The notes below the pieces were generated by a model, which worked only from the letters and a program-made list of their open reading frames with translations, ran no database searches and was not told the DNA's origin. Position numbers and translations under genes: made by a program. DNA of 64,000 nucleotides from Barthelona sp. PCE (Eukaryota): assembly GCA_040285745.1 (NCBI GenBank), contig JAUFOR010000002.1, positions 1,550,001-1,614,000 on the forward strand, given 5' to 3'. Shown piece after piece: positions 4,709-48,558 of the stretch; position 1 is the first letter of the stretch; each line of letters opens with the position of its first letter.

Positions 4709-7700
4709 TCAAACGAGTGACTCTAGCTTGTTGTTTGACATGTTTTTAAGCAGGTCATTCAACCTGCTTTTTAATACAGTCTTTTTTTGCTTGGAAGTGA
4801 TAATAAAAGCTTTAACAGCATCTTTACGAGAGCTAAAGTACGCTTTCCACAACCCATCGAATTCAAATGAATGACTACGATGTGTTATGAAGATCTTATA
4901 GGCACGAGTGAGAACAGAAGCAAATGTGTCTGAAAGGATAAACTCATCCTTATCGCTACGTTCGACTAGGGTGTATTTCGATGAAACAGACCGAAGCTCT
5001 GAAATAAGAGCTACGAGAGAATACGCTGCGATAGCGTTAATATTTGGAAAATTGGAATCGCTAACAACATCAATGCTTGGGAAACATAAATCTGAAACAC
5101 CAGATGCCAACTGTTTAAGGGAATGGAATATAAGGGTGTTTTTGACATCAATTTGAGGTAAATTATCTACTTTCTCTTCTTCAATGTTAGCCACAACATG
5201 ACTACGTGGTGTTCGATATGTGATCGATCCTGAATTGTACGGTACTCTGGAACCCATTGTATTGCGCAGTCGTGAAGATACTAGCGCTGCTGCTGATGCA
5301 CCAGTTTGTCCAGTTGTCTTGAGATTGAGCTTGGGTACTGGCAAAACGACAGTTTTATCTTTCTTGCTCCTCTTTTTCGTTGGCTTGTTTGTTCTGGCAT
5401 ACAGCAAACTGTGTAAAAATGCACGTGATGTCTGGTTTTGTTGACAGGTCTCGAAGAATAAGAGCATAAGAAAAGCCTCATCCATAACGGCAATGTCGAA
5501 TGGCATATCACTGTTAGTGATCTCCTTCTGCATCTTTCGACGTGACTTCTCTGCTGTAGCCATCGCTCGAGCCATCGGTGTGAGAGAGATTGTCTCTTTG
5601 ACTATACAATCAATAACAGGTGTACGAAGCAGCTGTAACAGTGCCTCATCCTCTTCTGTAAGTGGAGAAACATCCTTTCTTGGAGTTGGGGTCCTTGGCG
5701 TCTTCCTGTGAACAGGAGCCGGATCAGGTTCAGTATTCACCTCCAATGGGTTTATAGGACACACGTCCAACTTGATGGGAGGCAATGAAACATCGTTCTT
5801 GGACTTGTGAATAGACTTTAATGTGATACCACTTCCCGGTCGACCAACTCTAATTCTGCCTGAATGAATTGGTGAGATGTTTGGTGTGGGATCTACGGAT
5901 TTAAGTGCATTAACCAACATCATATCGTCTTCCATTGTGTCACTCCACTGTGTAGATACCGTCTCGGCATCAGAAGCGCCAACAACAGACTTCCAGTCAT
6001 CTTCGTCAGTTTCTGGGAGTAATGAATCTAGATCGATCGTTGTGGGTGTGTAATCAACTTTCTTGTCGATATAATTAAAAACACTACCCTGGTTCAAAGC
6101 ACCGTAGTCGATATCGGGCAACTCCACCGAGTCCAGATCGACAAAGTCTAACTCCGACTCATTGTCAGTTTCAGTTTCAGAATCCAAACCATGAAGTTGA
6201 ATTTCGTCAGCTTTAGGCACTCCAGTTCTGATTCGCTTGTTCTTTGGCGTTACACTCAGAAGCTCAACTGCCTTACGTGCAGCGACACCATTGCGGATAA
6301 CACGACCTAGCGCCTTAGGTGCACCTTTCGAAAACTGAACTGATTGGATCTCCAAAGGACGATCGGTTATTGGTTCTGGTTCTGGTTCTTGCTCGCGAAC
6401 AGATGCGGCTGACTCAACTCCACTTAGATGTGATATGAAATCAAGTTCGCTTTCGGATTCACTCAGTGCAACTGAAACGACGGGTGGTTTAGCAATGTCG
6501 ACTGTGATATTAGGAACAGTCGGACGCCAACGATGATCTCTTGACGCAGCCATACTATCAGTGAGCTTTTCATTGAGTACAACACTCTTTCCTGTATCCT
6601 CATCGTGGAATAAAATGGGCTCTTCCAATCTGGTCTCAGAACCGTCTGAGTCATAAGACAGCTTTTTTCGCCTGTCTCCTGGATCGCGCACATGTAGGGA
6701 ATGGTGCTTGGGCCGTGATTCACTGAATGGATGCAGTTTTGGCTGCTTGTTCGGCGATACGAAATTTTTGCTTATTGAATCTGTAAAAATCTCAACTTTC
6801 TTTCGGGTACGTCTGGATCGGGCATCCTGAACGCTCTCTGATGCACCAACATAACTTTTCTTCAGCGGTTCAACAACTTCTTTCTCAGCAATCTGTTCAT
6901 AATTGTACGGCGTTCCGTCATCGTAAACTAAATGCACCGGTGTATTATCCGATAACTCTCCATTAAACCCCATGATGAGGGCTGTACGCGGTGTGAGTGG
7001 TCTGGGCGACTCCACCTCGATAACGGGTTCTTGATTAGATGTAACATTAGTGAAAACGACAGGTGTTGTGATCAACTCATCTTCCTCGGTCTCTGAAGTA
7101 GTAGTTGAGAGTAATTCATTAACCATCTCAGTGTCTGACTCAGTCTGATGCTCTTGATAAAGATCGACATTTGCTGCTTGCGTTTCAGGGTCTGACATAT
7201 CATCAATTACATCGACAGGTATGCGTTCTAGCTCGCCGACAGAACACTCAGTGTCAGAGCGGTATGTGTCAAGATGATCGCTCTCAGAAATGATTGACAT
7301 TGACACCTCACTCAGCTGATCAAAGTCAAGTTGATGCATGACACTGGGGCGGCGGTTAACATCCATAGGTGCGTTCATGAAACTTGGGCGACGTTCTTTC
7401 CTTCTTGATTCTGTGATGCTGAACCTGCGATGGTGTGACACCGATGCAGGATCAAAAAACGAGGTTGTTAGGTCAACTGCGCCCTCCAAATCCTCTACAA
7501 TGTCATCATTCATACTAGCAGATTCGTTATCATAATTCGTTGACCTGACGTCACTCAACGAATGTTCTTCAGGTATAACATCAACGCGAGTTATATGCGT
7601 GTCAACTTGAAGCGCGATCAGGTCGTTATCGGACGCTATATATGATCCACGACGGTGACCAAACGCATGAACTTCAATTCCTTCAAGGTGCACAACAGGT

Positions 7701-10700
7701 TTTCTGTAGTCTTCCTCTGTGAACTTGTCAAGCTCACGGCGACGACGCTGTTCCAGCTCATGCTGCAACCGCTGACGAATAAGCATTCGCATGCGGACAG
7801 GGATGCTGCTGGACCACTGTTTACCTGTCAACGAAAGCGTCTCATCCGGTTCAAATTCGTTGCCAAACGAGTATACGTGGCCCTCGAGTACGGTCCCTGT
7901 CACGCTGTGTCTGCGCAAGTTGCCAGACTTGGTACCAAGGAAAAGATTCTTAAGCGCCGCCTCATTCTGCAGGGGAGTAACTGTAACATCACCTATTAAC
8001 TTACCTGGCAGTGCAAGAGACATGCGACGCTCTCTAGTCATCAGTGATGGCTGACCTGAGGCTAAATTGATACCCAGTTCAGCAAGTGACGCAACATGTT
8101 CATCAATTGCAACACTGACACTACTCTCTAGCATCTTTGACATCTTTGACAATGCTTTCTCCTCAACGGTCTTCTTCTTACCTCCAACGGCAGATGTAAC
8201 AAGTCCAAATAATCCTTCGTCCTCAGGCTCCTGTGATTTCTCCATCTGCATCTCGTAAGCAGCCATCATTTGCTGTAAAATGAGTTCCTCTGCATTTGCA
8301 AGGTTTTCTTCCTCCTCAATACGCTGTCTATTTGCTTGGGCAATAGTATCCAGCCGCTCGGAAGAGTTAAATAACTTCGCTTCTGTTTCTTCCTCCATAC
8401 GTTTAACCTGTTCAAAATATTCTGCAGCCTCCGCCTCCTTCCGTTTCTTCAACTCCTTCATATTGCGCAAACGCGCTTTGAGAGCCTTTGCAGCCAATTC
8501 CTCAGCACGATCATCGTTAAAAATGGCGTACAGTTCATCTTTCTTCCTCTTTTCCTCCACTATACGGTTGATCTCATCCTCTCTTGCCTTTGCTGCTTTT
8601 TCAGCACGCTCCATCCGCAAAAAGTCAGCGTTGTTACGCTTCTGTTGTTGTTCTCTCTCCAGTTCTTGCTTACGCCGTAAAGCTTGCTGTTTCTTACGAA
8701 TTTCTTCTTCAGCCACTGCCTTCTTGCGATCTAACTTCTTCTTAAAGTCATCTCTTATCTCTTGGGCGTATCCTGCCCATTCTTTCGTCTGCTCATCTCT
8801 CTCACGACGCTTCATTTCAGCAAGTTCATCAAAGTCAACGTCAGAGACTTCTTCTACACTTTCAAACTCTTTCAATTCGTCAACTTCACTAGTGAAAGAC
8901 TGTATAGGGGTACCCTCAAAATCTGTAGAACGGAACAAACTTGATCTTCGATTTTGGGTTTCACTCTCGAAAGAAGTAGAATGCTTGCGCATTATTTCTT
9001 CGGCAGAAGAAACCATATCACGATTTGATATACTCTTCCTTCTTGCAAAGTTCTTCTGGCGTCGTTCTCTCTGTCTATCCGCAACGCTCATCTTTCCTTT
9101 CCGCTTTCCATCATCATCCTCGTCTTCATGATCTTCATGCTCTTCAGATTCATGCGGAACATCAAATACGGAATCCGATAATGAATCAAGTGATTCAATT
9201 GAATCAAAACTGCCAATGTTCTGCTCCACAATATCCTCAGATTCTTCGTACAAACTACCTGCAGAATCGAATCTTTTCAGCAACATTGCCTTCTTCTTCT
9301 CACGTAGCACTCTTCGTCGCTCTTTAGCTTCTTCACTCAGTTCTGAAGCTTTAGACATCTCGTCGTTGTGAATCATCTCATTAACTGACATACCAACTAG
9401 TGCTACTCCACTACTGTTACGAGATATCACTGACAGCTCTGACTGTGAAACATCTAGCAACTCTGGCGTATGAGACTCGACATCTAAAACAAGGAACTCA
9501 TCGTTATTGTTCACATTCTTCAGTTGTGGCTGCTTGACTTTATCATTGGTACCAATACCAATACCAACGTCGGGAGTCCGGACGTTTGGTTGATTGGGAG
9601 TGGAAACATCCACATGCAAAGATGTTACAGAAACATCAGAGACATGAGAGACATGCTCTTCTCCTTCAACCTTATCCAAATCAAAGTGTTCGTCGAACTC
9701 TTTCTCATTGAGATTGAGGAACTTAACGATCGACTCTGGTGCCACCATTGGCTCATCGTCAGTAAGAATACCGTCTGTATCTGGCTCACTAAGACCCATA
9801 GAAAACTGAAGGATGTCACTGCGTTGTCTACTATCATATCCGCTAAATCCGTACATGAGTGGATCTGTCTGCTGTGGATCCTCAAGACTTTGCGGAGGAG
9901 GCCGAGCCAATAATTCAAATAAAGGGTTGCTTTCAGTCAGCTTCACCTGCTCATTGATTATCTTAAGAAGAGACTCACCATCATTCGTGTTACGGATAAT
10001 GCTCACGCGTTCGTCGAATGAAGATTGCGCCTGCTTGAAGAACTGCATCTCCTGATGTCGAGAATAAACATCCATATCAGCCATTAAAGCCATCTCTCTC
10101 TGTTGACTCTGTTCCTCCTCCTCAAGGGACCGCTCCTTCGCGATGATTTGATGCTGGTTGTCAATCATCCCAAGCAACTGACTCACGCCAGAGCTATCAA
10201 TTGAAATCTGTTCTTTGACTTTAGCGGATTTTGCCTTCTTCTTCCGTCTCTTCTTTCCAGATTTCAATCTTTTCTTTTTCATTTTCTCAGCTTCGATTAG
10301 CTTAATCTCATCTTGAGTCTTACGTTGCCATCGAACAACAGTAACAATACGAACGACAGTTTCGTTATCAATCTCATCTTCAACCTCCGTGTCGACCTCA
10401 AACTCAAAAAAGAAATCTGCCTGCGATGCTGGAGGGGGACGATAACGGATTATCTGCTGGTTCTCCTGTGATGGGTCTTCACCTTCATCGTCATAAGCAT
10501 CGAAATTAAATCCAACACCGAAATTGCGTATTATCCTCTTTAAATTCTTAGGTAAAGTAAAGTATGGGTTTTTCTTGCGGATCTGCTTCAGCTGTTTCTC
10601 TATCTTGAAGTTTAAAAATATGGAATCAAAAAATCGTTGTTTGTTCATCCAAATCTCTGTATTCTTCAATATAAGCTCACTAAATAACAACTTCTTCTGC

Positions 10701-12634
10701 TCCTCTGACTTGAAGTACGGCAATGTGACGTTGTAAAGATGATCTGTGTTAAAAGAAGCATGATAGTCGAGATACTGTTGATGTTGCACTTGTTGCTTAT
10801 CTTTCATCACAGCGTTAAATCTCTTTGAATTGTTCTCGCGGCGCTTCTTCTCGTCAACCATGAAGCGCCCCAGAAGTTTGAAATCTTCCCATGTAGGACG
10901 TTCTTCAATGTTTTGAACAACAATCTCCTCAATGTAAAAACGAAGCATGGATGATATTCTTGGAAGATTAACATCAATCTCAGCACAAAACCCTGAACTG
11001 CCATACAAAACAGGGCGCACAACCTCTCTATCAAGAAGAACCGTCTTGTTCACGGAATGACGCCATAATTGAAACGCTCCCTTCATAGAAATAAGAGCTC
11101 GATGTGCCAGAAACTCCTTGTACCGACGCTTCATGCTAACGTAGTGCTTGAACGCAAAGAATGACTTGTACAAAAGACCTATATCACTCCCACTTATCAA
11201 GTGAAAAACATGAATCATCTTTTGACGTTTATACTGCTTCTTAGACCGACAAACATTAATGATGTTACCCATTATGTAGTCCTTCTTGATGGCAACAAGC
11301 TTGCGTAACAAATCAAAGACCCGTCGCTTCTTATCCATTGCATCAACGTATTGCAACTTTGCAATCAATATTTCTTCTTTGTGCTTGAAACGGTACTCCC
11401 TGTACCATTTCGCAATCATACGCTTACCATGCACCTTCATGTAAATCTTCAGCTGTAGAACACGCTGCATGAAGGAAAAAGTGCGACTTTTTAACACCTT
11501 GTGTTTTGCTCTTAAAAATGTGTACTTCTTGTACTCAAGGGATTCATTGGCGTGGAACTTGTCCCGCCAGATAACAAAACATTTTTTAAGCGGCATTCTA
11601 TACTTAAAGAAATTGTATAAGAAAATGTGAAATATTTTCCTCTGTTTCTCCTTCTCCAAGAACAACTCCCATGCTGGAAAAATGTACTCCTGCTCTATAT
11701 CAGGAGGTAGCAGCTTTAAACGCTTGTGCTTCTGAAACTTTGTGTAATTCCGCCAAAATAAAAGAGAGTGCTTAAATCTTAACGCAGACTTTCTATCATT
11801 GTCAGTCTTGACTCGCTCTCTGAAGGCATTTCGCTTCCGTATCAAATAAATCCACTTCTGAATGGGTACACGCATTATACTATGCTCAATAGAAACCTTA
11901 GCTTTGCGTAACAAGTTCTCACGCTTCAATTTGTAATGCCATACCTTGAATGCACGTCTCTTCAGGCGAGCCTTGAAGAATTGCAATGGTGCAATAAGAC
12001 GATACCATGTTTGGAATGTGTCAAGCTTCAACTCGCTTACGTATAATTTACGAGATGCAACAACACTTTTTAAAAGCTTCTTTAATCGATACCAGCGCCA
12101 AAAACGAAGAATCACCTCAGCATAAACACCGTTTCGAAACTCTTTCTTGTAAGTACGAACAAAAGTACTGATGTGGTTCTCCGTATTACTACCATCATTG
12201 GATTCAACTAAATCGATAAGCCCCTGTTGCTCTTCATCTTTGAACTCGATACGGTCCAGTTCACCTGATGGTATGATCGTATTGGGGGAAATGCCCTGTC
12301 GAATCAATTCAAAAACTGTTAGATCATCATCAATTGTAACATTCTGCTCAATATCATAGTCAATCTGCGGTTTAAGTGCATGCATCTGTTGTGGATCAAG
12401 ACTAACTCGACGGGTCTTGAGGCTTACTAGCAAGTCCTCTTCAAATTGGTTGATCTCGCCCTCTTCCTTTGATTCAAAGCGGATAACGGCTTCGTTTTCA
12501 GCAACAGGATCTCGTATCCTAACGTTGACGCTTAGCAAATTATCACTAATTTCGAAATTATTCGAGTGAAGCTTTGCCTCTTTCAATGTCAGTCTGTACG
12601 CCTGATTCAAGGCCTCTTCCATATTATTTGACAT
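4709..12634 (-). CDS. Giant 2641-aa protein: N-terminal Sfi1-like Trp repeats, coiled coil, long acidic low-complexity region
   Basis: Uninterrupted ORF with recurring F-x-x-W basic helices (AFKVW, CFVIW, AFQLW, TFQTW). Confidence 0.7.
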   Translation of the reverse strand: MSNNMEEALNQAYRLTLKEAKLHSNNFEISDNLLSVNVRIRDPVAENEAVIRFESKEEGEINQFEEDLLVSLKTRRVSLDPQQMHALKPQIDYDIEQNVTIDDDLTVFELIRQGISPNTIIPSGELDRIEFKDEEQQGLIDLVESNDGSNTENHISTFVRTYKKEFRNGVYAEVILRFWRWYRLKKLLKSVVASRKLYVSELKLDTFQTWYRLIAPLQFFKARLKRRAFKVWHYKLKRENLLRKAKVSIEHSIMRVPIQKWIYLIRKRNAFRERVKTDNDRKSALRFKHSLLFWRNYTKFQKHKRLKLLPPDIEQEYIFPAWELFLEKEKQRKIFHIFLYNFFKYRMPLKKCFVIWRDKFHANESLEYKKYTFLRAKHKVLKSRTFSFMQRVLQLKIYMKVHGKRMIAKWYREYRFKHKEEILIAKLQYVDAMDKKRRVFDLLRKLVAIKKDYIMGNIINVCRSKKQYKRQKMIHVFHLISGSDIGLLYKSFFAFKHYVSMKRRYKEFLAHRALISMKGAFQLWRHSVNKTVLLDREVVRPVLYGSSGFCAEIDVNLPRISSMLRFYIEEIVVQNIEERPTWEDFKLLGRFMVDEKKRRENNSKRFNAVMKDKQQVQHQQYLDYHASFNTDHLYNVTLPYFKSEEQKKLLFSELILKNTEIWMNKQRFFDSIFLNFKIEKQLKQIRKKNPYFTLPKNLKRIIRNFGVGFNFDAYDDEGEDPSQENQQIIRYRPPPASQADFFFEFEVDTEVEDEIDNETVVRIVTVVRWQRKTQDEIKLIEAEKMKKKRLKSGKKRRKKKAKSAKVKEQISIDSSGVSQLLGMIDNQHQIIAKERSLEEEEQSQQREMALMADMDVYSRHQEMQFFKQAQSSFDERVSIIRNTNDGESLLKIINEQVKLTESNPLFELLARPPPQSLEDPQQTDPLMYGFSGYDSRQRSDILQFSMGLSEPDTDGILTDDEPMVAPESIVKFLNLNEKEFDEHFDLDKVEGEEHVSHVSDVSVTSLHVDVSTPNQPNVRTPDVGIGIGTNDKVKQPQLKNVNNNDEFLVLDVESHTPELLDVSQSELSVISRNSSGVALVGMSVNEMIHNDEMSKASELSEEAKERRRVLREKKKAMLLKRFDSAGSLYEESEDIVEQNIGSFDSIESLDSLSDSVFDVPHESEEHEDHEDEDDDGKRKGKMSVADRQRERRQKNFARRKSISNRDMVSSAEEIMRKHSTSFESETQNRRSSLFRSTDFEGTPIQSFTSEVDELKEFESVEEVSDVDFDELAEMKRRERDEQTKEWAGYAQEIRDDFKKKLDRKKAVAEEEIRKKQQALRRKQELEREQQQKRNNADFLRMERAEKAAKAREDEINRIVEEKRKKDELYAIFNDDRAEELAAKALKARLRNMKELKKRKEAEAAEYFEQVKRMEEETEAKLFNSSERLDTIAQANRQRIEEEENLANAEELILQQMMAAYEMQMEKSQEPEDEGLFGLVTSAVGGKKKTVEEKALSKMSKMLESSVSVAIDEHVASLAELGINLASGQPSLMTRERRMSLALPGKLIGDVTVTPLQNEAALKNLFLGTKSGNLRRHSVTGTVLEGHVYSFGNEFEPDETLSLTGKQWSSSIPVRMRMLIRQRLQHELEQRRRRELDKFTEEDYRKPVVHLEGIEVHAFGHRRGSYIASDNDLIALQVDTHITRVDVIPEEHSLSDVRSTNYDNESASMNDDIVEDLEGAVDLTTSFFDPASVSHHRRFSITESRRKERRPSFMNAPMDVNRRPSVMHQLDFDQLSEVSMSIISESDHLDTYRSDTECSVGELERIPVDVIDDMSDPETQAANVDLYQEHQTESDTEMVNELLSTTTSETEEDELITTPVVFTNVTSNQEPVIEVESPRPLTPRTALIMGFNGELSDNTPVHLVYDDGTPYNYEQIAEKEVVEPLKKSYVGASESVQDARSRRTRKKVEIFTDSISKNFVSPNKQPKLHPFSESRPKHHSLHVRDPGDRRKKLSYDSDGSETRLEEPILFHDEDTGKSVVLNEKLTDSMAASRDHRWRPTVPNITVDIAKPPVVSVALSESESELDFISHLSGVESAASVREQEPEPEPITDRPLEIQSVQFSKGAPKALGRVIRNGVAARKAVELLSVTPKNKRIRTGVPKADEIQLHGLDSETETDNESELDFVDLDSVELPDIDYGALNQGSVFNYIDKKVDYTPTTIDLDSLLPETDEDDWKSVVGASDAETVSTQWSDTMEDDMMLVNALKSVDPTPNISPIHSGRIRVGRPGSGITLKSIHKSKNDVSLPPIKLDVCPINPLEVNTEPDPAPVHRKTPRTPTPRKDVSPLTEEDEALLQLLRTPVIDCIVKETISLTPMARAMATAEKSRRKMQKEITNSDMPFDIAVMDEAFLMLLFFETCQQNQTSRAFLHSLLYARTNKPTKKRSKKDKTVVLPVPKLNLKTTGQTGASAAALVSSRLRNTMGSRVPYNSGSITYRTPRSHVVANIEEEKVDNLPQIDVKNTLIFHSLKQLASGVSDLCFPSIDVVSDSNFPNINAIAAYSLVALISELRSVSSKYTLVERSDKDEFILSDTFASVLTRAYKIFITHRSHSFEFDGLWKAYFSSRKDAVKAFIITSKQKKTVLKSRLNDLLKNMSNNKLESLV

Positions 12635-16675: not shown

Positions 16676-17089
16676 ATGGGTATGTTAAGACATTAAAACA
16701 CCTTGATGTGGCATTTACATTTAGTTAAGAGCACACAGAAGTTCCGTGAGATGAACGTTGAGGAAATCATGTCCTCACTCAAGAAGGAGAAGAACGAGCT
16801 CCTCAAGCTCCGTGTCTCCAAGGTTGCCTCCGGTGGCGCCTCCAAGCTTCTTCAAATGAAGAACATTCGTCGTGAAATCGCCAGAATGAAGACTATTATG
16901 CGTGAGAAGCAGCTCGAGGAACTCAGGACCAAGTACGAGGGCAAGAAGTACGCCCCTATCTGCCTCCGTACCAAGGGAACACGTGCCATGCGTCGTGCTC
17001 TTTCTGAGGAGCAGAAGGCTATGCAAACTGTCCGTCAACAGAAGCGCGCCAACAGCTTCCGTGATTACACTTACGCTATCGAGGCTTAA
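16676..17089 (+). CDS. RPL35: 60S ribosomal protein L35 (uL29); exons 16676-16679 and 16725-17089
   Basis: ELLKLRVSKVASGGASKL, IRREIAR, GKKYAPICLRTKGTRAMRRAL. ATG G|intron|TT AAG. Confidence 0.95.
16680..16724 (+). other. Spliceosomal intron, 45 nt
   Basis: GTATGT...TTTACATTTAG. Removal gives MVKSTQKF. Confidence 0.9.
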
Positions 17090-17141
17090 ATGTTTCTCCA
17101 GGTTTTCTACTTGCAATAAAAGGACGCTCTACTATTTTTGT

Positions 17142-18155: not shown

Positions 18156-18430
18156 ACGTCTAGAAAGAGTGAAATGAAGTGAAACAAGTTACGAAAATTT
18201 TTAACATACCTTGGATACGCTAAATGCTGTTATATTGCTGTGGTTATTACAAATTTTTCCATTACAAGAGACAAACTCAAAAATTTATACGCAGGCTAAG
18301 CATTCAATCAGTAAAATGTATTTCACAATTACATTATAACTTTATAGTTTATTTTCTGCTGAATCTAAACTAATCAATATTTTTAAAAGAAAAAAAGAAC
18401 TGTAGTATAAAATTCACTCCATTTCTTGTG

Positions 18431-19114
18431 ATGCCAAAGCGAAGAATTCAAAGCCTCATGCCGCCGTCAAACTTTTCGTGCATCTCAGAGGGCCTGTATC
18501 GTGGTGGTTATCCTCTTATTCCCAATTACTCTTTTCTGTATCAATATCAATTCAAAACAATATTGAGTCTCGTTCCTGAGGAGCCTATACTCGATTACGT
18601 CGAATTTTGCAATGATAACGATATCAAACTCATCTGGAAATCTGTCAAAAAATTCGATGAGGACATTTGCTTCACAAACGATGAAATGGCATCTATTCTT
18701 GAGGTAATAATTAATTGTAACAACTACCCTCTTTACATTCACTGCCTGGATGGAAGCCATAACACCAGTTTAGTTGTAATGTGTTTAAGAAAGTTACAAA
18801 ATTTTTCAATGAGTTATATTACGAATGAAGCCAGACGGTATTCTGCGGAAGTTTTTGCGTATGAATTTCAGTTTATTGAATCATTTGACGGACCAATCAA
18901 TGTGAGTTTTGCAACACCACATTGGTTATGGCCGAATCAACAGATCTTGCATCCATCCATTCAAATCATATTTAGAAGGAATTATATGAGTAAGAAGGCG
19001 TCAAAGAAGGTAGAAACGCACGAAATAGAAGTCAATGATAGACATAATCTACTTGAAGCGCTTGATCTCGAAGGTCTAACCGTTACCAAAGACCGTAAAG
19101 AAGTTATCGAATAG
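18431..19114 (+). CDS. Siw14/Oca-family atypical dual-specificity phosphatase-like protein (Oca6-like)
   Basis: PPSNFSCISEGLYRGGYP, PLYIHCLDG, CLRKLQ. Confidence 0.85.
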   Translation: MPKRRIQSLMPPSNFSCISEGLYRGGYPLIPNYSFLYQYQFKTILSLVPEEPILDYVEFCNDNDIKLIWKSVKKFDEDICFTNDEMASILEVIINCNNYPLYIHCLDGSHNTSLVVMCLRKLQNFSMSYITNEARRYSAEVFAYEFQFIESFDGPINVSFATPHWLWPNQQILHPSIQIIFRRNYMSKKASKKVETHEIEVNDRHNLLEALDLEGLTVTKDRKEVIE

Positions 19115-20387
19115 TTCTCTTGAATGCAGCAATATAAAACCCGTTGCCTGTGTCTCCAGGCTCAAATCTTAAGCTGCATTCCGCAACTAACTGGGAATCA
19201 TTTGTGGAGGCAATATCATTTCCTCTTGTACTAAGTTCAGGACACACCTTCACCAGTTCCCAACCATGTTCACGGGCAAGTGGGAGCACGTCAAGAATCA
19301 TTTGCTCATTCTCTTCGTTGTTAACGGAACATGTTGAATAGACTAAGAAACGTCCCATAGGCATATTGCTCAATGATTCTTCTAAGCACTCCTTCTGAAA
19401 TGTTGTATATTTTCCAAGGTCAGGCTCACCAAAAACGTGTGACATAAGCACAGCATCGACGCTACGGACAACTCCTGAGCTTGAACATGATGGGTCCAAC
19501 ATAATGTGTGTCACATTTTGTTTCTCCGAGTCTGTCAAGTCTAAACAGCTCTTGTTATAAGTAATCACGCCTTTCGAGAAGGGGTGACGATCCAGATTGC
19601 GACGTAACAGATTGTATCTTCTCCTATTCAATTCAACAGCCTTCTGTGTAATATGAGGATCGAGTTCATTCAGCATATGCGCAAGATACGTAGTCTTGTT
19701 ACCAGGGGCTGCGCACATATCAAGAGTACATACATCCTCATAGTCATCAAGATTCTCGTTTTTGAGTGCACTCATCATTACGTGTGGTGGGAAACAACTA
19801 GCACGATCTTGAATGACTACAGTTCCTTCCTTTGCCATACGACTGAAATTGATTGCATTTTTGCGTGTATTTTCAAATGAATAAACGTTTTTAAGCAAAT
19901 CATCTGGTTTACCATTAAGCTTTGCTGTAATTGAGCGAACAAACAGCGGCATATCAGATGCAGCCGTTAAAGGGCAAGCTTCAGGTAATCTATTTGACAA
20001 TTCTTCATATTTTGAACGGAAAAAATCAATGTGCACAATAAAACGACGAACAAAAGTAGGAAAACGTTTACGCTTCAAAGTCTTCTTTGAATCTGCCTTG
20101 TATGGTCCTTCTAGGAGCTCATACAGTGCAATGACATGCTCTGCATCGAACTCAAGTGAAAAATTGAACTCTTTCTGAGATAACTCATCCACAACTTCTA
20201 AAAAGAACTCATTAAGTCTGCTGAAATGTGAGAGTGCCGAAACTACAATACCATATAGTGCAGCCTTTTGCTTGGCTGGCAAGGGCAATGAAAAAACTGA
20301 ACTTTTCAATGACATCGATTGCTTAGCCAAAAACCCCTTAACAATATTTGCTGCGTGTTCCTGAATACGTTTGCTTTTATCTCCCAT
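19104..20387 (-). CDS. NSUN5: rRNA cytosine-C5 methyltransferase NSUN5/Rcm1-like
   Basis: IQDRASCFP, DMCAAPGNKTT, DPSCSSSG, YSTCS, GFYIAAF. Confidence 0.85.
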   Translation of the reverse strand: MGDKSKRIQEHAANIVKGFLAKQSMSLKSSVFSLPLPAKQKAALYGIVVSALSHFSRLNEFFLEVVDELSQKEFNFSLEFDAEHVIALYELLEGPYKADSKKTLKRKRFPTFVRRFIVHIDFFRSKYEELSNRLPEACPLTAASDMPLFVRSITAKLNGKPDDLLKNVYSFENTRKNAINFSRMAKEGTVVIQDRASCFPPHVMMSALKNENLDDYEDVCTLDMCAAPGNKTTYLAHMLNELDPHITQKAVELNRRRYNLLRRNLDRHPFSKGVITYNKSCLDLTDSEKQNVTHIMLDPSCSSSGVVRSVDAVLMSHVFGEPDLGKYTTFQKECLEESLSNMPMGRFLVYSTCSVNNEENEQMILDVLPLAREHGWELVKVCPELSTRGNDIASTNDSQLVAECSLRFEPGDTGNGFYIAAFKRTIR

Positions 20388-21174
20388 ATTAATCTGTATG
20401 TTTTAGAATTATGGATATGAATGTAAAAACACTTATTAAGTATTTACATTTCAATGGAATACAATATGCATAATGATGCATTGGAAAAAACTCATTTTCA
20501 ATAAAAGAAGAAGCATGCTGTGATCTAGAAGTACATTAAACTGAACAGGGTTATAAAAAGGTCTTTCATGATATATTTACTAGCTTTTTCGCTTGATTGC
20601 TGTTAAAAATTAGTCCTAAACAGTATTTAAATGAATGAAAAGAGCAACTCAGCAACAGCAACTACCCAATTTATATCTCAGCTCTTTGTTTTAGCAATTG
20701 TATGATTACAGTTACTATCGCTGTCATGAATCATAACCTTAAAAAGAACCACGACTTTTTGTTAAAGAAAAATGCCGGTTAATGCAGGCTTCCTTATATC
20801 TGTAAATAGCAAATGATTTGAACATAATGTTAAGGCATTACCAACTTAAAGTGGATGAGAGTTCCAATTAATGGTTATTTTGAAATTCTATTTTTAATAT
20901 CACTAAATACACTATTTATTGTCAATGCGGTGCGTATTACGTCGTTATCTACCATAAATAAACTTATTGTTTGGGTTACCATCCTCCGTAAGTGCTTTAT
21001 GTTGCAGAAATCATATATCCACAAAATATGGTGTAAAACATATTATTTCCAAATAAATAAGGTTCTAAATCACTATTTATATCAAAATATGATAATATTT
21101 TACCTTAATAATTTTTTACGTTAGCAAAGTCACTTTAAGTAAAAGGTTACATAATCTTTACATTTTTCCTTATA

Positions 21175-21803
21175 GATGAGAAGTGTTGGGGTGGGTCGTG
21201 GTCCTGATCAGGGTGATTGATTTTCTTCCGGTGACTCGTAGGAGGTTGTAAATTTACTTCGGAGTTAGACACTTGTACGGGAGTTGCGAGCTCCCTCGAG
21301 TGCTGTGCTTGCACTGAGAATTGTTCTAGAGCCCTTTTTTTAAAATAAAAGGGGAGAAAGAAATGATGTAAGTACTCACAGAGTACAAGAGGGAAGACCG
21401 CGTGTCTACTCCTCAGTAGATTTACTCCTACGAAATAGCGTGTTATTCACAAGCGTGCCATACAGGCGCTAGACTTTATACTTGAGGTAGTAAACAGCGG
21501 AGGGGGACGAAGCGAACCGTCATGTGTAGTAGGTGTCCGTAGGACCCGATACGGTTTTTCTTACCTTTTTCAAAAAAAAAAGGTTTTAGGCCACTTCCCG
21601 GACGAAACACCCTCTACACGTGAAGGCGAGCCTTCCCACGTGAGCGTTCCCCGACGTCAATAAACCTACTTCAGTATAAAGAGTCTCATCCATGTTAACG
21701 GGTAATAAAGGAAAGTAATCAGATTCTTTACAGAGATCTAAGTTCGGATATGGTGCCGCATATGGGCTACCTTCTTCAGAGTTTGGAAGTCCATATATCT
21801 GAA
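21175..21803 (+). ncRNA. Unclassified large structured non-coding RNA candidate (~630 nt)
   Basis: No ORF and more GC-rich than its flanks. Closing helix 21175-81/21684-90, two long nested arms (21236-21433, 21474-21681) and a 3' hairpin (21743-21803). G-U pairs work on the + strand. Confidence 0.75.
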
Positions 21804-22027
21804 AAATAGTAGTATTTCAATTACTAATAATACAATAAAATAAATAGGAAACTGTAAATGGTGAGAAATCAAAATACACCCGCATACGTTCTATTCCATT
21901 CTCTGTTCAAAATCATTTGCAGGATCTTTTCAGGCCCAGAGGCGATAAAAGCATTGAAGACTTACTGAAGAATGTTGGAAAACCTTTTGCATTGGGAACT
22001 TTTGTGTGTGATTATTTTTCATTATTA

Positions 22028-22525
22028 TTATTGTGCAATGTACTCCTCAATCCATTTACGATTCAAGCGCTCGTTGGAACGTTTGGGGTTATACATATAC
22101 TCAAATGCATCAGAACGCTCCTCACTCTGCATTATAGCGTCAGTTAAATGTGGTGCCTGTTCTCTAAATTCTGTTAAACTAAACTCATGAAGGGTCTCAC
22201 TAGGCATGCCATCGCAGCAGTACGCAATAGTGATACGCAAATCATTCTCAGGAATATTGGTAAGGTCAAGTTCAACAAAATCCATTCCTGTTGATCCTAC
22301 AGGGCATAAATAAATGCATGTTCCGCATGGTCCATAGTGATTCCTACCAACATAATGATTATACCCACATTTTGCAAAGGTTCCGCTTGGGAACTTAAGT
22401 TTCAGTTTTTCAATCAGCTGCTCGATTAACTCAGGGCCATACTCGATATTAATGCGCTCATTATTTTGATTTTCATGATCTATTAACATTTTTAGCTGGA
22501 AAGAAGGTTTTAAAAAGTTTTTCAT
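22028..22525 (-). CDS. Hypothetical Cys-containing protein (~165 aa)
   Basis: ORF with first likely ATG at 22525, protein-like composition, tandem stop codons. Confidence 0.6.
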   Translation of the reverse strand: MKNFLKPSFQLKMLIDHENQNNERINIEYGPELIEQLIEKLKLKFPSGTFAKCGYNHYVGRNHYGPCGTCIYLCPVGSTGMDFVELDLTNIPENDLRITIAYCCDGMPSETLHEFSLTEFREQAPHLTDAIMQSEERSDAFEYMYNPKRSNERLNRKWIEEYIAQ

Positions 22526-22789
22526 TTTTTTGATGTTTTCACTTGTCTTTGTGGTACACCTACGGATTAATAGGATTGACGCATAGAATCTGTATGGTTT
22601 GAAAACCTTGTAAAACAATTTTGTGCTATGCGAAAAATGCAGGCATTCAGAATTATGCATTAATGCGCAATAAAAGCATCAAAAAGAGATCAAAAAACCA
22701 GAATACTGCCTTTGATCGTCAAAGTTGTACTTTGAAGTCTTCTCTTATACATATTTTGATTAAAGCACCCTTCTCAGCCCTCAACGTGC

Positions 22790-28161: not shown

Positions 28162-29352
28162 ATGGAGCCAATTGTAATTGCTAGTGTTCCCGGTAACGAG
28201 CACGTAAGCGTCGTTAGGGCCGAAGAACCAGAATATGAGGAAGTTAACAAGCTTTTTGAGCATGCGCAAAAAATGCTTAAGTGTAGCTTCGATTTCGCGA
28301 CTGAACAACTTAGTAAGTTCAGCGGGGACGCGACAGTGTTGGGTTCTTTGCGTGAACGTCTGCATAGTCGCATCAGAGAGATTGCAGCTCTGCAAGTTGC
28401 AATTTCTGATGCTCAATTAGGTTGTTTACATGAGAGAGATCTTGCAATCGTTCTCATGCGAAAAATTAACGTGATGCGACTGCAGGAAATTCAAGATAGA
28501 CGCAAAATTCAAGCATTATTGCAACTTACGACAGAGGACAGTGAAGAAAACCGCAAACTCACACGGCCTACGTGGGAAGACTTGGGATTCGATAGCTTTG
28601 AAGAACAGAAAGAGCTGTTAACGGTTATGATGACATTGCGCAAAGAGGTGGATATCATCCGGGAGCACGGAAATCAAGAAGCTGAGTTTTCCTTAAGGCA
28701 GAGGGCTGCAGAAGAGACAAAACGTGCAACAGACCTGAATGAAGTTCACGCTGATATCGAAATATTTAACGAACGTTCGTGTGAATGTGAATCAAGTTTA
28801 CAGAGTGTGGTTCAGAGTGTTATCGAGGAGAAGTTTTATGGTCTTGAGCGTATCTTAACTATCAATCAGGAGATTGAGACACTGGATAAAGATATGAACG
28901 CCATAAACGCTAGAATTAGGCAAGTTCGTCAGGAAGCTCAAGCTCAAACTGCAGATAAAATGCAGAGCATTAAACGTTTCAGTGAAGAAGATAGGAACAA
29001 CTTGGCGAGCCAATGCGATAAGCATTCAGAGGAGATCACTTTGTTGAAGCAAGAAATACGAAATTCGAAACGAAAATATGAACGCAGTATTAAAGCAATG
29101 GATAAGGAACGTAAAATGAGCGAAAAGCACGTTTCAGAGGCACTTGCCAACCGTATGTTCTTATTTGAAGGGTTTGAAAACTCTATTGTGGTTTTGAAGA
29201 GAGATTTGAAAAAGTTGTTATTCTTCTATAATACTAAAGACATGAAAGAAGCCGATAAAACGCAATTAGATGAGGTAATCAACCGTCTTAATTTAGAAAT
29301 TAATTTGATTGAAAAGAAATTTACAACAATGAAAAATATTTTTGATGCTTAG
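28162..29352 (+). CDS. CCDC77: CCDC77-like centriolar coiled-coil protein
   Basis: LQVAISDAQ...ER...QEIQDRRKIQALL resembles the CCDC77 conserved block. Coiled coil. Confidence 0.65.
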   Translation: MEPIVIASVPGNEHVSVVRAEEPEYEEVNKLFEHAQKMLKCSFDFATEQLSKFSGDATVLGSLRERLHSRIREIAALQVAISDAQLGCLHERDLAIVLMRKINVMRLQEIQDRRKIQALLQLTTEDSEENRKLTRPTWEDLGFDSFEEQKELLTVMMTLRKEVDIIREHGNQEAEFSLRQRAAEETKRATDLNEVHADIEIFNERSCECESSLQSVVQSVIEEKFYGLERILTINQEIETLDKDMNAINARIRQVRQEAQAQTADKMQSIKRFSEEDRNNLASQCDKHSEEITLLKQEIRNSKRKYERSIKAMDKERKMSEKHVSEALANRMFLFEGFENSIVVLKRDLKKLLFFYNTKDMKEADKTQLDEVINRLNLEINLIEKKFTTMKNIFDA

Positions 29353-31130: not shown

Positions 31131-31287
31131 GAAAAGCAAAAATAAATGAAATATGGGGTTTCAGTTCACTTTGATAGTGGTAAGGGCGACTCATTCTAAT
31201 TTATGTGTCATTAATGACCTTTATTAAGCGTAATAGAACTTGTAGAACTTGTTTCACTTTTTCACACGTTTTGGCGCCTCTACAAGA

Positions 31288-36992: not shown

Positions 36993-38105
36993 ATGTTTAA
37001 TGGGCGTGAATATGAGGGCATTTGTAATTATTGTGGTAGCAGACGTTTTAATGAGATAAATGGTCAACCTCACTGTGCTAACTGTGGTTCAGCAGTTGCA
37101 AATGTCATCATGGAAACACAGGAGTACGATTTTGACTCCAGGCAGCACACTCAACAGTCTGCTGCTCTTGAATCCATTAAGGTACAGAAAAGAAGTAATA
37201 CAGATATTTTTGCAACAATTCAAGCAATGCTTTTGGATGATGTTATGGCAACTCTACAGTTCATTGCTCAAGATGACAAATTAGCACAGTTGATCGATTT
37301 TCGACAATATCCTCTTTTAAAAAGATTAAATTCTTACTGGAAACGTTTGTTAGATCATTTGTTCGACACATCACAGTTAAATTTTTTTAGTTTTATGAGG
37401 AGCAAACGTCGTTTCACAGTTGCTTTTTTGTATTTAATTTTTAGAAGTTTTTCTTTGCCTATTGACATAGGATATATAGTAAGAATACTGAAACACCCCT
37501 TTTTAGGTAACCACGTTCATATTTATCGTGTTTATTTTCACATAATTCGCTTAGGAATTTTCTCTGTTCCAAGCTCTAATTTACCTTTGATTTATTGTTA
37601 TTATTTCACTGAAACATGCCCTCGCTTCATCAACACATTCATTAATTCCCAGTTGAAACACATTGTGACGGACAGCTATGAGATCGACGTAATTTTGTTA
37701 GAGCTTACTTGTTTCTGTTGTCAATTTATAAAGTATATTTCTTCTAATGGTGGTATAGAGTTTTTAAATATTCAAGAGAAGGATTTGCAAGAGGATTACA
37801 GAGAGTTTCGTTCTTTTGTTGTGCGTATTTTAGATTTTCCACGAATTTTTTTAGTTGAATCTGCTATTGATCAAGCTAAACTCTCCAAATATAAGTTGGT
37901 AGATATCATTGAGCGATTGTTTTATAATCTCAGAAGTCATTTTTGTATATTTTTTACAAGTATAGTCTTTCACAACTTTAAGAGGGTTTTTAATCAAAAT
38001 CAATGTGAGTTACCAACTAAATTTTCTTCCTACACACTGGTATCCACAGAATATCTCCCGGTTACAAGTCAAGATGAATCAGAAACTGATACTTTGTCAG
38101 AATAA
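36993..38105 (+). CDS. Zinc-ribbon protein, TAF1B/Rrn7-like (Pol I initiation factor)
   Basis: N-terminal CxxC...F...NG...CxxCG ribbon followed by a helical region. Confidence 0.6.
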   Translation: MFNGREYEGICNYCGSRRFNEINGQPHCANCGSAVANVIMETQEYDFDSRQHTQQSAALESIKVQKRSNTDIFATIQAMLLDDVMATLQFIAQDDKLAQLIDFRQYPLLKRLNSYWKRLLDHLFDTSQLNFFSFMRSKRRFTVAFLYLIFRSFSLPIDIGYIVRILKHPFLGNHVHIYRVYFHIIRLGIFSVPSSNLPLIYCYYFTETCPRFINTFINSQLKHIVTDSYEIDVILLELTCFCCQFIKYISSNGGIEFLNIQEKDLQEDYREFRSFVVRILDFPRIFLVESAIDQAKLSKYKLVDIIERLFYNLRSHFCIFFTSIVFHNFKRVFNQNQCELPTKFSSYTLVSTEYLPVTSQDESETDTLSE

Positions 38106-41287: not shown

Positions 41288-42160
41288 TTATAGTTTACTG
41301 CCAAATTCCAGTTGAATTACTTCCAAGAGTCGTTCAAAACCTGTTTGATAAACTGAATGAGGTAACCTTCGCTTAGCTGTGTCCAAAAATCGAAAATAAT
41401 CATTGTGGCAATCATGAAGCAAAAAAGGGTTACTATCACAGAAGTTTAAGACGTTTTTGACTAGAAGTTCAACGTTTTCTATTGATATTTGATGAATTAA
41501 TCGTTGATAAATGCTCAATGCTAATTGTAAATCTTTTGAATTTAACTCATTAAGTAATTCCCATAACTGATCATGTTTTAACATCGATTCGTCACACAAT
41601 GTGAAAAAAAGAAGAACAAATCCATAACTTTGTGATCCTTGATGACTGAACAAAGAAAAAAAATGTTTCTTAACGTCTTCTTCTGATATAATCAGTTTCA
41701 AAAGCAATTTAATATAAGTTTTGAACTTAACAAATATTAAATATAATAGCTCAAATAATTTTTCATTGCGATTTTTAACAAAAAATAATTCTTTTAGACA
41801 AACCTCACAAAATTCTTGTTTTTCGATACCTAAAAAGAATATGTTTAGTAATTCTACAGCTAATATTCGAAATGAAGTGGAGCAGAAGAACCAATCAATC
41901 AAAAAAATGTATAAACGCCCTAAAATATGCCAAGAAGCTGTTTCATTGATGTTTCTTGAAACTATTTCAAAATTTAAAAACAAGGTCTCCAAATATTGCC
42001 CAAAAATGTAAGCATGGTCACCACCGCTAAGCGGTTTTTGTGTTCTACGATGAACAGAATCAAAAATGTTATATATAGTCATAAAACCATCATGATAAGA
42101 GCATTCATTGGCTGAAAACGCCTTCAACTGGTCCACATAAGGTTTAAAATCTATGTTCAT
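41288..42160 (-). CDS. Hypothetical helical protein
   Basis: 290-aa ATG-initiated ORF. Confidence 0.6.
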   Translation of the reverse strand: MNIDFKPYVDQLKAFSANECSYHDGFMTIYNIFDSVHRRTQKPLSGGDHAYIFGQYLETLFLNFEIVSRNINETASWHILGRLYIFLIDWFFCSTSFRILAVELLNIFFLGIEKQEFCEVCLKELFFVKNRNEKLFELLYLIFVKFKTYIKLLLKLIISEEDVKKHFFSLFSHQGSQSYGFVLLFFTLCDESMLKHDQLWELLNELNSKDLQLALSIYQRLIHQISIENVELLVKNVLNFCDSNPFLLHDCHNDYFRFLDTAKRRLPHSVYQTGFERLLEVIQLEFGSKL

Positions 42161-42185
42161 GCTTTTAAGGGTTGTAATAATAATT

Positions 42186-43481
42186 ATGACTTCTTCTCAA
42201 GAGGGTGAGGGTAAAACCCACTCAAGCACGATAAATGTCGCGGAATTCACCGCAAAGAACATTAGATCGATTAAAACATTGAGATCCAATGTATTGGATA
42301 TGCGAGGCAGTCGTAGGGCAATGCAGATGCTTCCTCCTTTTATGAGAAGGCGTCAGGCTACACATAACCCATACAGGGTTCCCAGAAGACTTCGCGAGAA
42401 AGCTAAATGGGAAAATTCTAAGTCACCACCAGGACCTAAGCGTATTCGATCCTTTAGACGCAAGAAACGCAACTTAGAGAGAAGCAGAAAGGCAGCTATC
42501 GATGGGAAATGGACACAACTTCATGTTTATCATGCAAAACGCTTTAAGCAGTGCAAACTGGAGAATAGCGACTTAATTCTACCATATTCACCCACCCAGA
42601 AATGTGGCAGATGGTTTCTTCGATGCATGCGTCATCAAAGCGTCATGTTTGATATGTCACATTATAGATTGTTTTTAGTTGAGGAGGAACAACAGAATTT
42701 CGGAAGTTTTGAGCGCAAATGCGATGAATCAACAGATTTCTGGGATGTTTTCAAGTTCGGGAAGTATGTTTTAGCACCGATATTTTTGATTGAACGGATC
42801 GCTTCTCCTATAAGATGTCTTCCTTTTGCACCATTTTTTGTTGCGGGAAGACAGAGCCTCTCTGATCTTGGGGAAGTCTTTGGTATTGGTGACAGTAGAT
42901 CTTATGGTGAATTCAAGGAAGGTGTTTATTGTTTTGATTTTGAAGATTTTCGTGTTAATGATGAGATATCAACAAGATGGAATCCTCAATTACTAACAAA
43001 AGATTGCGATTTGGGGGTTTTTAACGATTTTTTAACGGAAAAGGATATGAGTCTGCTTAAGTCAGAAAAAATCCTTGATCAAAAGAACCAATTTGTTTCA
43101 AAAGGTATTTTCCTCAACACAGATGCAGTTTACAGTCCGGAAATCAACTCAATGGGTGCATTTTTCCTTGTGCCAGATACAATATATCCTTTTATGTGGA
43201 GAAAACTTGAGCTACATGTGCGTCCTTTTGGTCTTTTCGAATGGTTTCATTTAAAACTTGAATTGGGTGTGCTTCCTCCGCTGGATATCATCAAGGTCGT
43301 ACTGGAGCGTTCAAAAAAGAAACTCCCATGTGACTTTGAGGAAGCCGAATGGGAAATCGTGGTTTCTCGTAAACAGTGGAGGGAACAGTGTTCTAATCTG
43401 TACAGTGTTTACTCAGCATTTTCGTTTGTTAGCAATTCCAAGTTATATTTGGCTGTAAGACGAAATAATGATGAGAAATGA
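42186..43481 (+). CDS. POP1: RNase P/MRP subunit Pop1 (compact)
   Basis: QMLPPFMRRRQATHNPYRVP (R-box), WTQLHVYHAKRF (W-box), DMSHY. Confidence 0.85.
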   Translation: MTSSQEGEGKTHSSTINVAEFTAKNIRSIKTLRSNVLDMRGSRRAMQMLPPFMRRRQATHNPYRVPRRLREKAKWENSKSPPGPKRIRSFRRKKRNLERSRKAAIDGKWTQLHVYHAKRFKQCKLENSDLILPYSPTQKCGRWFLRCMRHQSVMFDMSHYRLFLVEEEQQNFGSFERKCDESTDFWDVFKFGKYVLAPIFLIERIASPIRCLPFAPFFVAGRQSLSDLGEVFGIGDSRSYGEFKEGVYCFDFEDFRVNDEISTRWNPQLLTKDCDLGVFNDFLTEKDMSLLKSEKILDQKNQFVSKGIFLNTDAVYSPEINSMGAFFLVPDTIYPFMWRKLELHVRPFGLFEWFHLKLELGVLPPLDIIKVVLERSKKKLPCDFEEAEWEIVVSRKQWREQCSNLYSVYSAFSFVSNSKLYLAVRRNNDEK

Positions 43482-47556: not shown

Positions 47557-47757
47557 GTACCTTAAGCCTGAAACTGTTGATTTTTAAGAATGAAATGGAA
47601 AAGTTCTAAATTTATTCTTCAAATAAAAAGATATTGTTGTCTATGTGTGAAAATTTATGCTTGAAGTGCAGTTAAACGGTCCTCTATGGAAGGAATTCTT
47701 AATAAAAAGCTTGTTAAAGCGTTTATTACCTTATTCAGCGTTGGACTCTTATTTTCG

Positions 47758-48558
47758 ATGCCAGCAAAGCAGAAAGAGGTCTACACAATTGTACAAAGCA
47801 CCGAGGAACTTGAGAATGAGCTGAAAACACCAGGTCATCTTTGTTTCGTTGAGGTATATGCTGAATGGGCAGGCAGGTGTGAAGCTGTAGTTCCATTGCT
47901 CCAACAGTTCGTGGTTACATACTTTTCCAACCCAGTGAAGTTTATCTTGGCAAAAGACATCTTTTTAGAGGATGTTGCTAGGGATGATTCATGTCCTTTA
48001 TTCAGATTTTACCTTAGCGGTCAGCTAACCACCTTCATTAGAGGTGTAGATGCTCCCAAGATCAGAGAAGTCTTTGCAGACTTGGTTCCAGAACCCATCA
48101 AGCCGGAAAGTCCTTCACCAGAACCAGAAGCTGAAGCTGAACCAGAGCCCGTTGTATCAGAAGTTCCAGTGGAAGAGGAGAAGGTTGGTGAAGAGGGAGA
48201 ACAGCCTGAAATTGAAGAGGAATCCGCAGAAACAGTTGAAGAAGAAGAAGAAAAAGTGAGTGATTCATCTTCACAAGCAGAAGCTATAGAAACAGTTCAG
48301 TCTGAGAAGACAGAATCAGAAAAGGCAGAATCAGAAAAGGCAGAATCCGAGAAGGCAGAATCCGAGAAGGCAGAATCAGAAAAAGCTGAGTCAGTTCACG
48401 ATATGAGTGAGCCTGAGGAGGTTGAAAGTCCGAAGGAGGACGAGAAAGAGGAGAAGAAGGGATTCTTTGAAACCATTGTTGATGAGGTAAAGGATGAAGC
48501 AACCGAAGAGAAGAAGGACATTGATAATACCGTTGATAATTTATTGGACTCTCTGTAG
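47758..48558 (+). CDS. Thioredoxin-fold protein (NME8/dynein light-chain thioredoxin-like) with acidic tail
   Basis: VEVYAEWAGRC, CPLFRFY..G....IRGVDAP. Confidence 0.75.
   Translation: MPAKQKEVYTIVQSTEELENELKTPGHLCFVEVYAEWAGRCEAVVPLLQQFVVTYFSNPVKFILAKDIFLEDVARDDSCPLFRFYLSGQLTTFIRGVDAPKIREVFADLVPEPIKPESPSPEPEAEAEPEPVVSEVPVEEEKVGEEGEQPEIEEESAETVEEEEEKVSDSSSQAEAIETVQSEKTESEKAESEKAESEKAESEKAESEKAESVHDMSEPEEVESPKEDEKEEKKGFFETIVDEVKDEATEEKKDIDNTVDNLLDSL
48301..48393 (+). repeat. Coding 15-nt tandem repeat, about 6 copies (SEKAE)
   Basis: tcagaaaaggcagaa / tccgagaaggcagaa units. Confidence 0.9.

Follow-up and report, generated by a model that had tools for sequence, protein, structure and literature searches.

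A two-armed, highly structured element in the one large intergenic gap of a Barthelona window: a candidate gene for a large noncoding RNA

What is the folded, GC-rich sequence that occupies the one long gene-free gap of an otherwise densely coding stretch of the Barthelona sp. PCE genome? We analyzed a window of 64,000 nt (the whole stretch of DNA considered here), in which the gap at 20388-22027 measures 1640 nt and is the largest of the 35 gaps between open reading frames (ORFs) of at least 110 aa. The second-largest such gap is only 454 nt, which bears out an earlier description of the locus as the only large noncoding gap. Most intergenic spacers in the window are shorter than 300 nt (the median being tens to a few hundred bases), and several genes overlap. 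Within the gap, the element forms an island of 47% GC (44 to 54% locally) between flanks of 20 to 31% GC, and 220 nt of AT-rich sequence separate this island from the gene to its right.

That right-hand neighbor is an orphan gene recorded as a 153-aa protein (22028-22489, - strand). The underlying ORF (22028-22660, - strand, 210 codons) is longer, and its sole record is the 153-aa protein starting at 22489, for which no homologue was found among 1.84 billion representatives. Other genes near the gap encode a Pecanex-like protein, a DEAH helicase, BBS9/PTHB1, an AdoHcy-hydrolase-like protein, and a Kelch protein; an axonemal dynein heavy chain and a POP1 homologue (Pfam PF06978, E 2.3e-20) are also encoded in the window. 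From these genes, we conclude that the organism is a flagellate. The closest relative of its BBS9 shares only 27% identity, and the nearest named relative of the dynein heavy chain is that of Barthelona sp. PAP020, at 57% identity; we accordingly regard the host as a barthelonid-like metamonad. The POP1 gene belongs to a divergent pair, 42153-43481 (+) and 41288-42160 (-), whose start regions overlap by 8 nt, and further gene overlaps were seen at 19104-19114 and 38074-38105. Elsewhere in the window, the 2641-aa ORF at 4709-12634 (-) matches no Pfam family at E<=0.001, and five copies of a repeat with a 15-nt period at 48288-48392 (+), inside a thioredoxin-like ORF (47686-48558), correspond to a short peptide repeat. 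ORF 16706-17089 (+, 127 aa) has the second-highest codon score (0.39) and overlaps the - strand ORF 16775-17116; its exact sequence is absent from the protein collection.

The first-pass annotation, made from the letters alone, had stated that the element contains no ORF, and three lines of evidence agree for the gap as a whole. Pfam searches of its 10 longest stop-to-stop frames returned no match above threshold, codon log-odds of gap frames ran from -0.11 to +0.04 (versus 0.05-0.40 for 31 ORFs), and 0/7 of its ATG-initiated ORFs of at least 30 aa are present in the protein collection, where the flanking genes are found. We considered and rejected ORF89 (20855-21124, 89 codons) as a gene that would have the element as its 3' UTR; its codon log-odds of -0.006 fall below those of all 31 ORFs, and it is absent from the protein collection. 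A structured intron of a split gene was likewise rejected, as there are no coding- or Pfam-bearing exons at either side. The ORF overlap at 38005-38105 is explicable without an intron. The sole weak Pfam match in the gap, to DPM2 (E 0.006, 17.3 bits versus a cutoff of 27.3), lies outside the element at 20389-20535 (-), where it covers the C-terminal half of a possible small DPM2-like gene (20389-20569, - strand) immediately upstream of the NSUN5 gene. The ATG of this candidate, at 20569, is in a different frame, implying a frame break or a tiny intron, and its codon score (-0.11) is unsupportive.

The features of the gap and its borders are given below; X1 is a public sequencing run, used as contigs.

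19104-20387, - strand: gene for an NSUN5-type methyltransferase, neighbor of the gap.
20570-21174: left part of the gap, AT-rich (20-35% GC), without structure.
21162-21167, - strand: TGTAAA, candidate 3'-end signal for a - strand RNA.
21175-21181, + strand: 5' strand of the closing helix, partner 21684-21690.
21182-21235, + strand: leader, G/U-rich, with little structure; GC skew +0.22 to +0.36.
21236-21433: arm 1, a 198-nt irregular hairpin with a basal 30 bp in four helices.
21332-21353: tip hairpin of arm 1, T7/A-rich, 85% identity over 20 nt with the tip of arm 2.
21389-21401, + strand: asymmetric bulge in the 3' strand of arm 1, purine-rich, 13 nt.
21434-21473: inter-arm linker, where the MFE structure places two small hairpins.
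21474-21681: arm 2, a 208-nt irregular hairpin with 39 bp in five helices.
21537-21581: apical extension of arm 2, a T5/A10 hairpin; other sequence in the X1 contig.
21582-21660: 79-nt block, 3' strand of arm 2, identical in the X1 contig.
21632-21644, + strand: internal loop of arm 2, CUUCCCACGUGAG, 13 nt unpaired in the MFE structure, within the 79-nt block.
21691-21803: 3' tail, two competing weak hairpins; z -1.72 (+) and -2.84 (-).
21853-21858, + strand: TGTAAA, candidate 3'-end signal for a + strand RNA.

The structure at 21175-21690 is real and unusual. All 11 helices previously drawn by hand pair base for base, and the nine that make up the two arms persist when pair probabilities are computed in three contexts (21175-21803, 21175-21690, and 21100-21900). 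In arm 1, helices 21236-44/21425-33, 21249-58/21415-24, 21261-64/21409-12, and 21266-72/21402-08 have pair probabilities of 0.90-1.00; in arm 2, helices 21474-82/21673-81, 21484-90/21666-72, 21502-09/21645-52, 21520-29/21614-23, and 21532-36/21607-11 also have probabilities of 0.90-1.00, apart from the first of them. All or nearly all pairs of these nine helices are present in the MFE structure across the three contexts. The weakest, 21474-82/21673-81 (0.66-0.94), keeps 6 of its 9 pairs in the MFE structure in both longer contexts. The longest uninterrupted helix is 10 bp, and arm 2 contains large asymmetric internal loops.

Outside the arm helices, the proposed fold held up less well. The closing helix consists of 7 Watson-Crick pairs, as drawn, but its support depends on context: for an RNA ending at 21690 its probability is 0.97, whereas both longer contexts give 0.00. 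The 5' leader, taken as 21175-21235, is less structured than its own shuffles (z +1.91 on + and +1.72 on -). The three apical hairpins assigned to arm 1 (21279-95, 21299-315, and 21332-53) reach probabilities of only 0.17-0.32 and are absent from the MFE structure, which favors an extended rod over a multiloop at this apex. A further hairpin proposed at 21738-21806 does not differ significantly from its shuffles on the + strand (z -1.72, equaled by 16/300), and the two G-U pairs cited for it (21746-800 and 21766-790) come from two mutually exclusive helices that share a strand. The 3' tail at 21691-21803 may be part of the element. On the other side, the left part of the gap (20570-21174) could be a promoter or an unstructured piece of a longer transcript.

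Comparison with shuffled sequences places the core well outside expectation on both strands. For 21175-21803, the folding tool gave -208.0 kcal/mol on the + strand (z -4.06) and -184.2 kcal/mol on the - strand (z -3.83), with 0/20 shuffles equal in each case, and separate dinucleotide shuffles gave z-scores of -4.58 (+) and -4.48 (-). The core at 21175-21690 was more extreme (z -5.65 on + and -5.51 on -; 0/100 dinucleotide shuffles each), as was arm 1 (z -5.29 on + and -6.73 on -; 0/300 dinucleotide shuffles each). Arm 2 reached z -4.94 on the + strand (0/300 shuffles) and -2.72 on the - strand (3/300), the latter being the only case among the whole, the core, and the arms in which shuffles met the observed energy.

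We also ranked the locus within the window by scanning 2900 windows of 220 nt on both strands for the MFE residual against composition. Arm 2 ranked 2 and windows in arm 1 ranked 9, 14, and 19, and windows of 120 nt over the remainder of the gap revealed no structure. Rank 1 of 2900 went to 28249-28468, which lies inside an annotated ORF, so rank alone is no proof of an RNA gene. The structured region there, 28249-28512, falls within ORF 28162-29352 (+), which encodes 396 aa without a Pfam match; folding 28240-28520 gave -89.7 kcal/mol (z -3.40, equaled by 1/200 shuffles).

The strand of a putative transcript is less clear. The first-pass annotation had taken G-U pairs inside the helices as a sign of selection on a + strand RNA and against a DNA inverted repeat. 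The four G-U pairs in the arms (21254-21419, 21486-21670, 21506-21648, and 21523-21620) are present, but at least one A-C apposition also occurs there (21531 opposite 21612) and the z-scores of the two strands are equal, so the pairs argue only weakly for the + strand. The case for an RNA over an inverted repeat fared better in its general form than in its strand-specific form. The arms carry bulges and possibly a multiloop, and their halves depart strongly from perfect inverted repeats, so an inverted duplication of recent date is disfavored; the equal z-scores, on the other hand, make a DNA-level palindrome compatible with the energies. The advantage of 24 kcal/mol that the + fold enjoys is mirrored in its shuffles (-177 versus -155), arm 1 scores better on the - strand, and energies and flanking signals alike are compatible with both strands. 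An excess of G over C on the + strand of the element (135 versus 107) is a weak hint for the + strand.

Flanking signals were sought from the gene ends of the window. The motif [TA]GTAAA occurs within 60 nt after the stop codon of 11/31 ORFs versus 4/31 upstream controls, sometimes overlapping the stop codon, and is likely a 3'-end/polyadenylation signal in this window. It resembles the polyadenylation signals of Giardia. Copies flank the element on both strands, and the signal therefore does not give the strand. We rejected TTCACT as a promoter-like motif, as it lies upstream of only 5/31 ORFs and has no exact copy in the gap; the gap offers a single near match, TCACTT at 21130, which precedes the element by 45 nt. 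A 27-nt motif (core TTTCACTT) is common to 18164-18190 and 31246-31272, 20-40 nt upstream of two ATGs, and its looser form, T[TC]CA[CA]T[TC], is found within 120 nt upstream of 9/31 ATGs; it may be a promoter or initiator element.

Does the element belong to a described RNA family? The hand reading had found no match to known classes, and model searches agree. Rfam returned 0 matches at gathering thresholds in the 64 kb and 0 matches even at E<=10 in 21160-21820 (661 nt), which spans the element; at E<=10 in the wider region 20300-22200 (1901 nt), there were two matches to Listeria sRNAs (E ~8-9), both outside the element. A tRNA scan with ARAGORN gave 0 hits. The suggestion of a viroid- or virus-like origin is unsupported, with no match to a ribozyme family and none to viral contigs.

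The suggestions of a divergent telomerase RNA or RNase P/MRP RNA fared no better in direct searches. No template for 27 telomere repeat types was found on either strand of 20388-22027, which holds just scattered 7-9-mers; the repeats tried were canonical ones plus barthelonid and skoliomonad ones, and may not be the host's own. Part of PMC11316075 gives the telomere repeat as the 10-nt TATATGGTCT in one barthelonid and TTAGGG in a skoliomonad. The best template match to TATATGGTCT, at 21787, was an 11-mer containing 1 mismatch, and the window has 11 matches of this quality in all. Telomerase RNA covariance models gave 0 matches at E<=10; these models are clade-specific and thus a weak test. 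Using consensus strings for CR-I, CR-V, the Sm site, and the C box, we found 0 CR-I-like sites (<=1 mismatch, both strands) and a single CR-V-like site, on the - strand and without a CR-I partner. The element also lacks the P4 arrangement and any match to the RNase P/MRP covariance models.

Other RNA classes were rejected on similar grounds. For spliceosomal snRNAs, isolated box matches of 6-8 nt (21526, 21559, and 21730) lie inside helices or the tail, distant from any plausible 5' end, and the element has no exact Sm site. For C/D snoRNAs, it contains 0 exact C boxes. For H/ACA snoRNAs, long ones of the snR30/U17 type included, the + strand hinge (21434-21473) has no ANANNA; the - strand hinge has one, but the second hairpin is not followed by ACA. 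As described in part of PMC3510501, Giardia ncRNAs bear a 12-nt processing motif that coincides with the mature 3' end or closely follows it. This motif occurs exactly at 21332-21343 and, by eye, at 11/12 positions at 21563-21574, in both cases in a hairpin tip. The window holds 14 matches versus 8.0 +/- 2.7 expected, with 2/100 shuffles reaching 14, and we judged the exact match to be probably due to chance.

Among the public sequencing runs screened, no RNA run was listed as carrying the sequence, and the only relative of the element came from X1, apparently a DNA run, which carries 0.05 of the sampled words; no X1 contig covers the remainder of 20300-22700. One X1 contig of 196 nt matches 21582-21660 at its bases 118-196 with 0 differences, and its preceding 117 nt are unlike the 64-kb window. 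No more than 5 of the 30 nt before the junction align with the window's own 5' strand of arm 2. The last 23 of these 30 nt are able to form helices of 6, 5, 4, and 3 bp with 21591-21611, which is suggestive of the same hairpin with a shorter and different tip. The reverse complement of the flank scores 21 against the arm 2 region (1704 tiles: mean 12.7, sd 2.2, max 23), and the duplex of flank and block has an energy of -26.3 kcal/mol, which 74/1000 flank shuffles reach. This partial contig is the sole relative, and the paired strand is invariant in it. An exact-pattern scan with pieces of the block gave 0 matches in metagenome, viral, and prokaryote genome contigs. Judged from the sequence, the 3' strand of arm 2 may be constrained beyond its pairing, and the T5/A10 tip may be dispensable; the same pattern could also be expected among copies of a repeat family.

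Within the 64-kb window itself, the element has no second copy, the longest exact match being 13 nt. No complementary target of the element was found in the window either. Neither arm is abutted by direct repeats, and the arm halves align with each other solely with many gaps and mismatches. We rejected the idea that arms 1 and 2 are duplicates of one another (many-gapped alignments with local scores of 33 in direct and 54 in reverse-complement orientation).

Several readings other than an RNA gene of a new kind have to be weighed against these data. We consider it unlikely that the locus is a DNA-level repeat without an RNA function of its own, that is, one decayed foldback or MITE-like mobile element or a pair of neighboring ones. 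Such a repeat would explain why the structure is equally strong on both strands, why both arms end in similar A/T-run tips, and why the 79-nt block sits in another context in X1, as repeat copies would; it accords poorly with the single copy in 64 kb, the lack of direct repeats beside either arm, the gapped arm halves with their asymmetric loops, and a relative's genome that, according to part of PMC11316075, is just 4.46% repetitive. Quite unlikely, in our view, is a very divergent RNase P/MRP RNA, telomerase RNA, or spliceosomal snRNA that covariance models miss in a fast-evolving lineage. The empty Rfam search at E<=10, the missing CR-I-like site beside a lone - strand CR-V-like one, the absence of a template for any of the 27 telomere repeats (with the best TATATGGTCT match one of 11 similar ones), and the lack of an exact Sm site or C box, with snRNA-box matches buried in helices, all speak against it. 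On its side are the POP1 homologue, which means that an RNase P/MRP RNA must exist in the genome, the strong divergence of the organism's proteins (as for BBS9), and a size and multi-helix shape that fit telomerase RNAs of fungal or trypanosome size. The portion of a review of Giardia telomerase drawn on here reports no identified telomerase RNA.

It is very unlikely that the element is a small-RNA precursor, a single transcript with two long imperfect hairpins cut by RNase III into miRNA- or siRNA-like guides: two adjacent intergenic fold-backs of ~200 nt and an unequal conservation of the arm 2 strands, as for guide versus passenger, would fit, but helices of at most 10 bp without interruption, large asymmetric loops, an invariant block of 79 nt that far exceeds small-RNA length, and the lack of a complementary target in the window would not. 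A structured UTR of a neighboring mRNA, such as a long 3' UTR belonging to the 153-aa gene, appears highly improbable. No [TA]GTAAA follows the stop of that gene within 60 nt, and the first such signals on the - strand lie at 21732 and then at 21426, 21258, and 21162; a UTR of 850 nt, however, would be exceptional where 11/31 ORFs have a signal within 60 nt and spacers are mostly under 300 nt, and the AT-rich 220 nt would intervene between GC island and gene. Finally, the unique gene-free, AT-flanked position in a genome almost without spacers, together with a symmetry independent of strand, would suit a centromere core, a replication origin with dyad symmetry, or some other chromosomal cis element. 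The structured part is a mere 0.5 kb and is GC-rich, not AT-rich, and we regard this reading as extremely improbable.

The element is the best ncRNA gene candidate in the 64-kb window. We give about an even chance to the reading that 21175/21230-21690 is the gene for a lineage-specific, highly structured ncRNA of ~0.5-0.7 kb that belongs to no described family. We favor this reading because the fold is a real outlier, the gap is noncoding, Rfam has no match, and part of arm 2 recurs in X1; the first-pass proposal of a new large ncRNA thus remains the best one, shorn of its claim of strand-specific selection. A 1.6-kb gene-free gap with a folded GC island, kept amid overlapping genes and short spacers, is unlikely to be junk.

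If the element is such an RNA gene, it would yield a stand-alone transcript, probably the product of RNA polymerase II acting from one AT-rich flank or the other. Polymerase II is likelier than polymerase III because runs of T5-T7 on the + strand and T10 on the - strand inside the element would stop the latter. Two irregular arms of ~200 nt each, joined by a short linker, would serve as a protein scaffold. The strand at 21582-21660 would be under the strongest sequence constraint and, including the open loop CUUCCCACGUGAG, is a putative recognition site for a protein or another nucleic acid. CUUCCC of the arm 2 loop (21632-21644) may pair with GGGAAG of the arm 1 bulge (21389-21401) and so unite the two arms.

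Large structured RNAs beyond the universal set are rare in eukaryotes, and even the universal structured RNAs are poorly known in metamonads. We tentatively suggest, as a possibility that falls short of an even chance, that the locus stands for a previously undescribed family of large structured RNAs, one of barthelonid-like metamonads. A two-armed RNP scaffold of 0.5-0.7 kb would then occupy the one sizeable spacer kept by an extremely streamlined genome, and an invariant strand of 79 nt or more would be the scaffold's functional site. Such an RNA might take the place of a housekeeping RNA still missing from the metamonad inventory; one example would be a telomerase RNA with noncanonical templating of an unusual repeat. 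If transcribed and conserved, the element would define a new RNA family and offer a handle on the RNP biology of a deep, little-studied branch of eukaryotes. If it is instead a repeat or a UTR, the lesson would be that, in genomes of this kind, RNA genes are over-called when fold statistics are the sole criterion.

Compared with known systems, the element resembles Giardia ncRNA genes, as portrayed in part of PMC3510501, in being intergenic, preceded by AT-rich sequence, and undetectable by homology; it differs from them in carrying the 12-nt motif in a hairpin tip rather than at the 3' end, and the Giardia ncRNAs are far shorter. With fold-back or MITE-like elements, it shares long imperfect inverted repeats and structure of equal strength on both strands, yet its arms are very irregular, it lacks a target-site duplication, and it occurs just once in 64 kb. 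Long-hairpin precursors of small RNAs are known from plant or algal MIR-like loci. The element is similar to these in its intergenic fold-backs of ~200 nt and asymmetric strand conservation and unlike them in the shortness of its helices (<=10 bp between interruptions) and the length of its conserved block (79 nt). Like nuclear RNase P/MRP RNA, it is multi-helix, and a terminal helix may join its 5' and 3' ends; typical P/MRP RNAs are smaller, and the element, unlike them, has neither a CR-I motif nor the P4 arrangement nor a model match. Telomerase RNAs of fungi and kinetoplastids are lineage-specific, multi-arm molecules of 0.9-2 kb. Unlike these, the element has no repeat template and no Sm site or C/D box at its 3' end. 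It is like them in being large, single-copy (here, within the 64-kb window), fast-evolving, and invisible to family models, with long irregular arms that extend from a junction and carry U-run and A-run segments.
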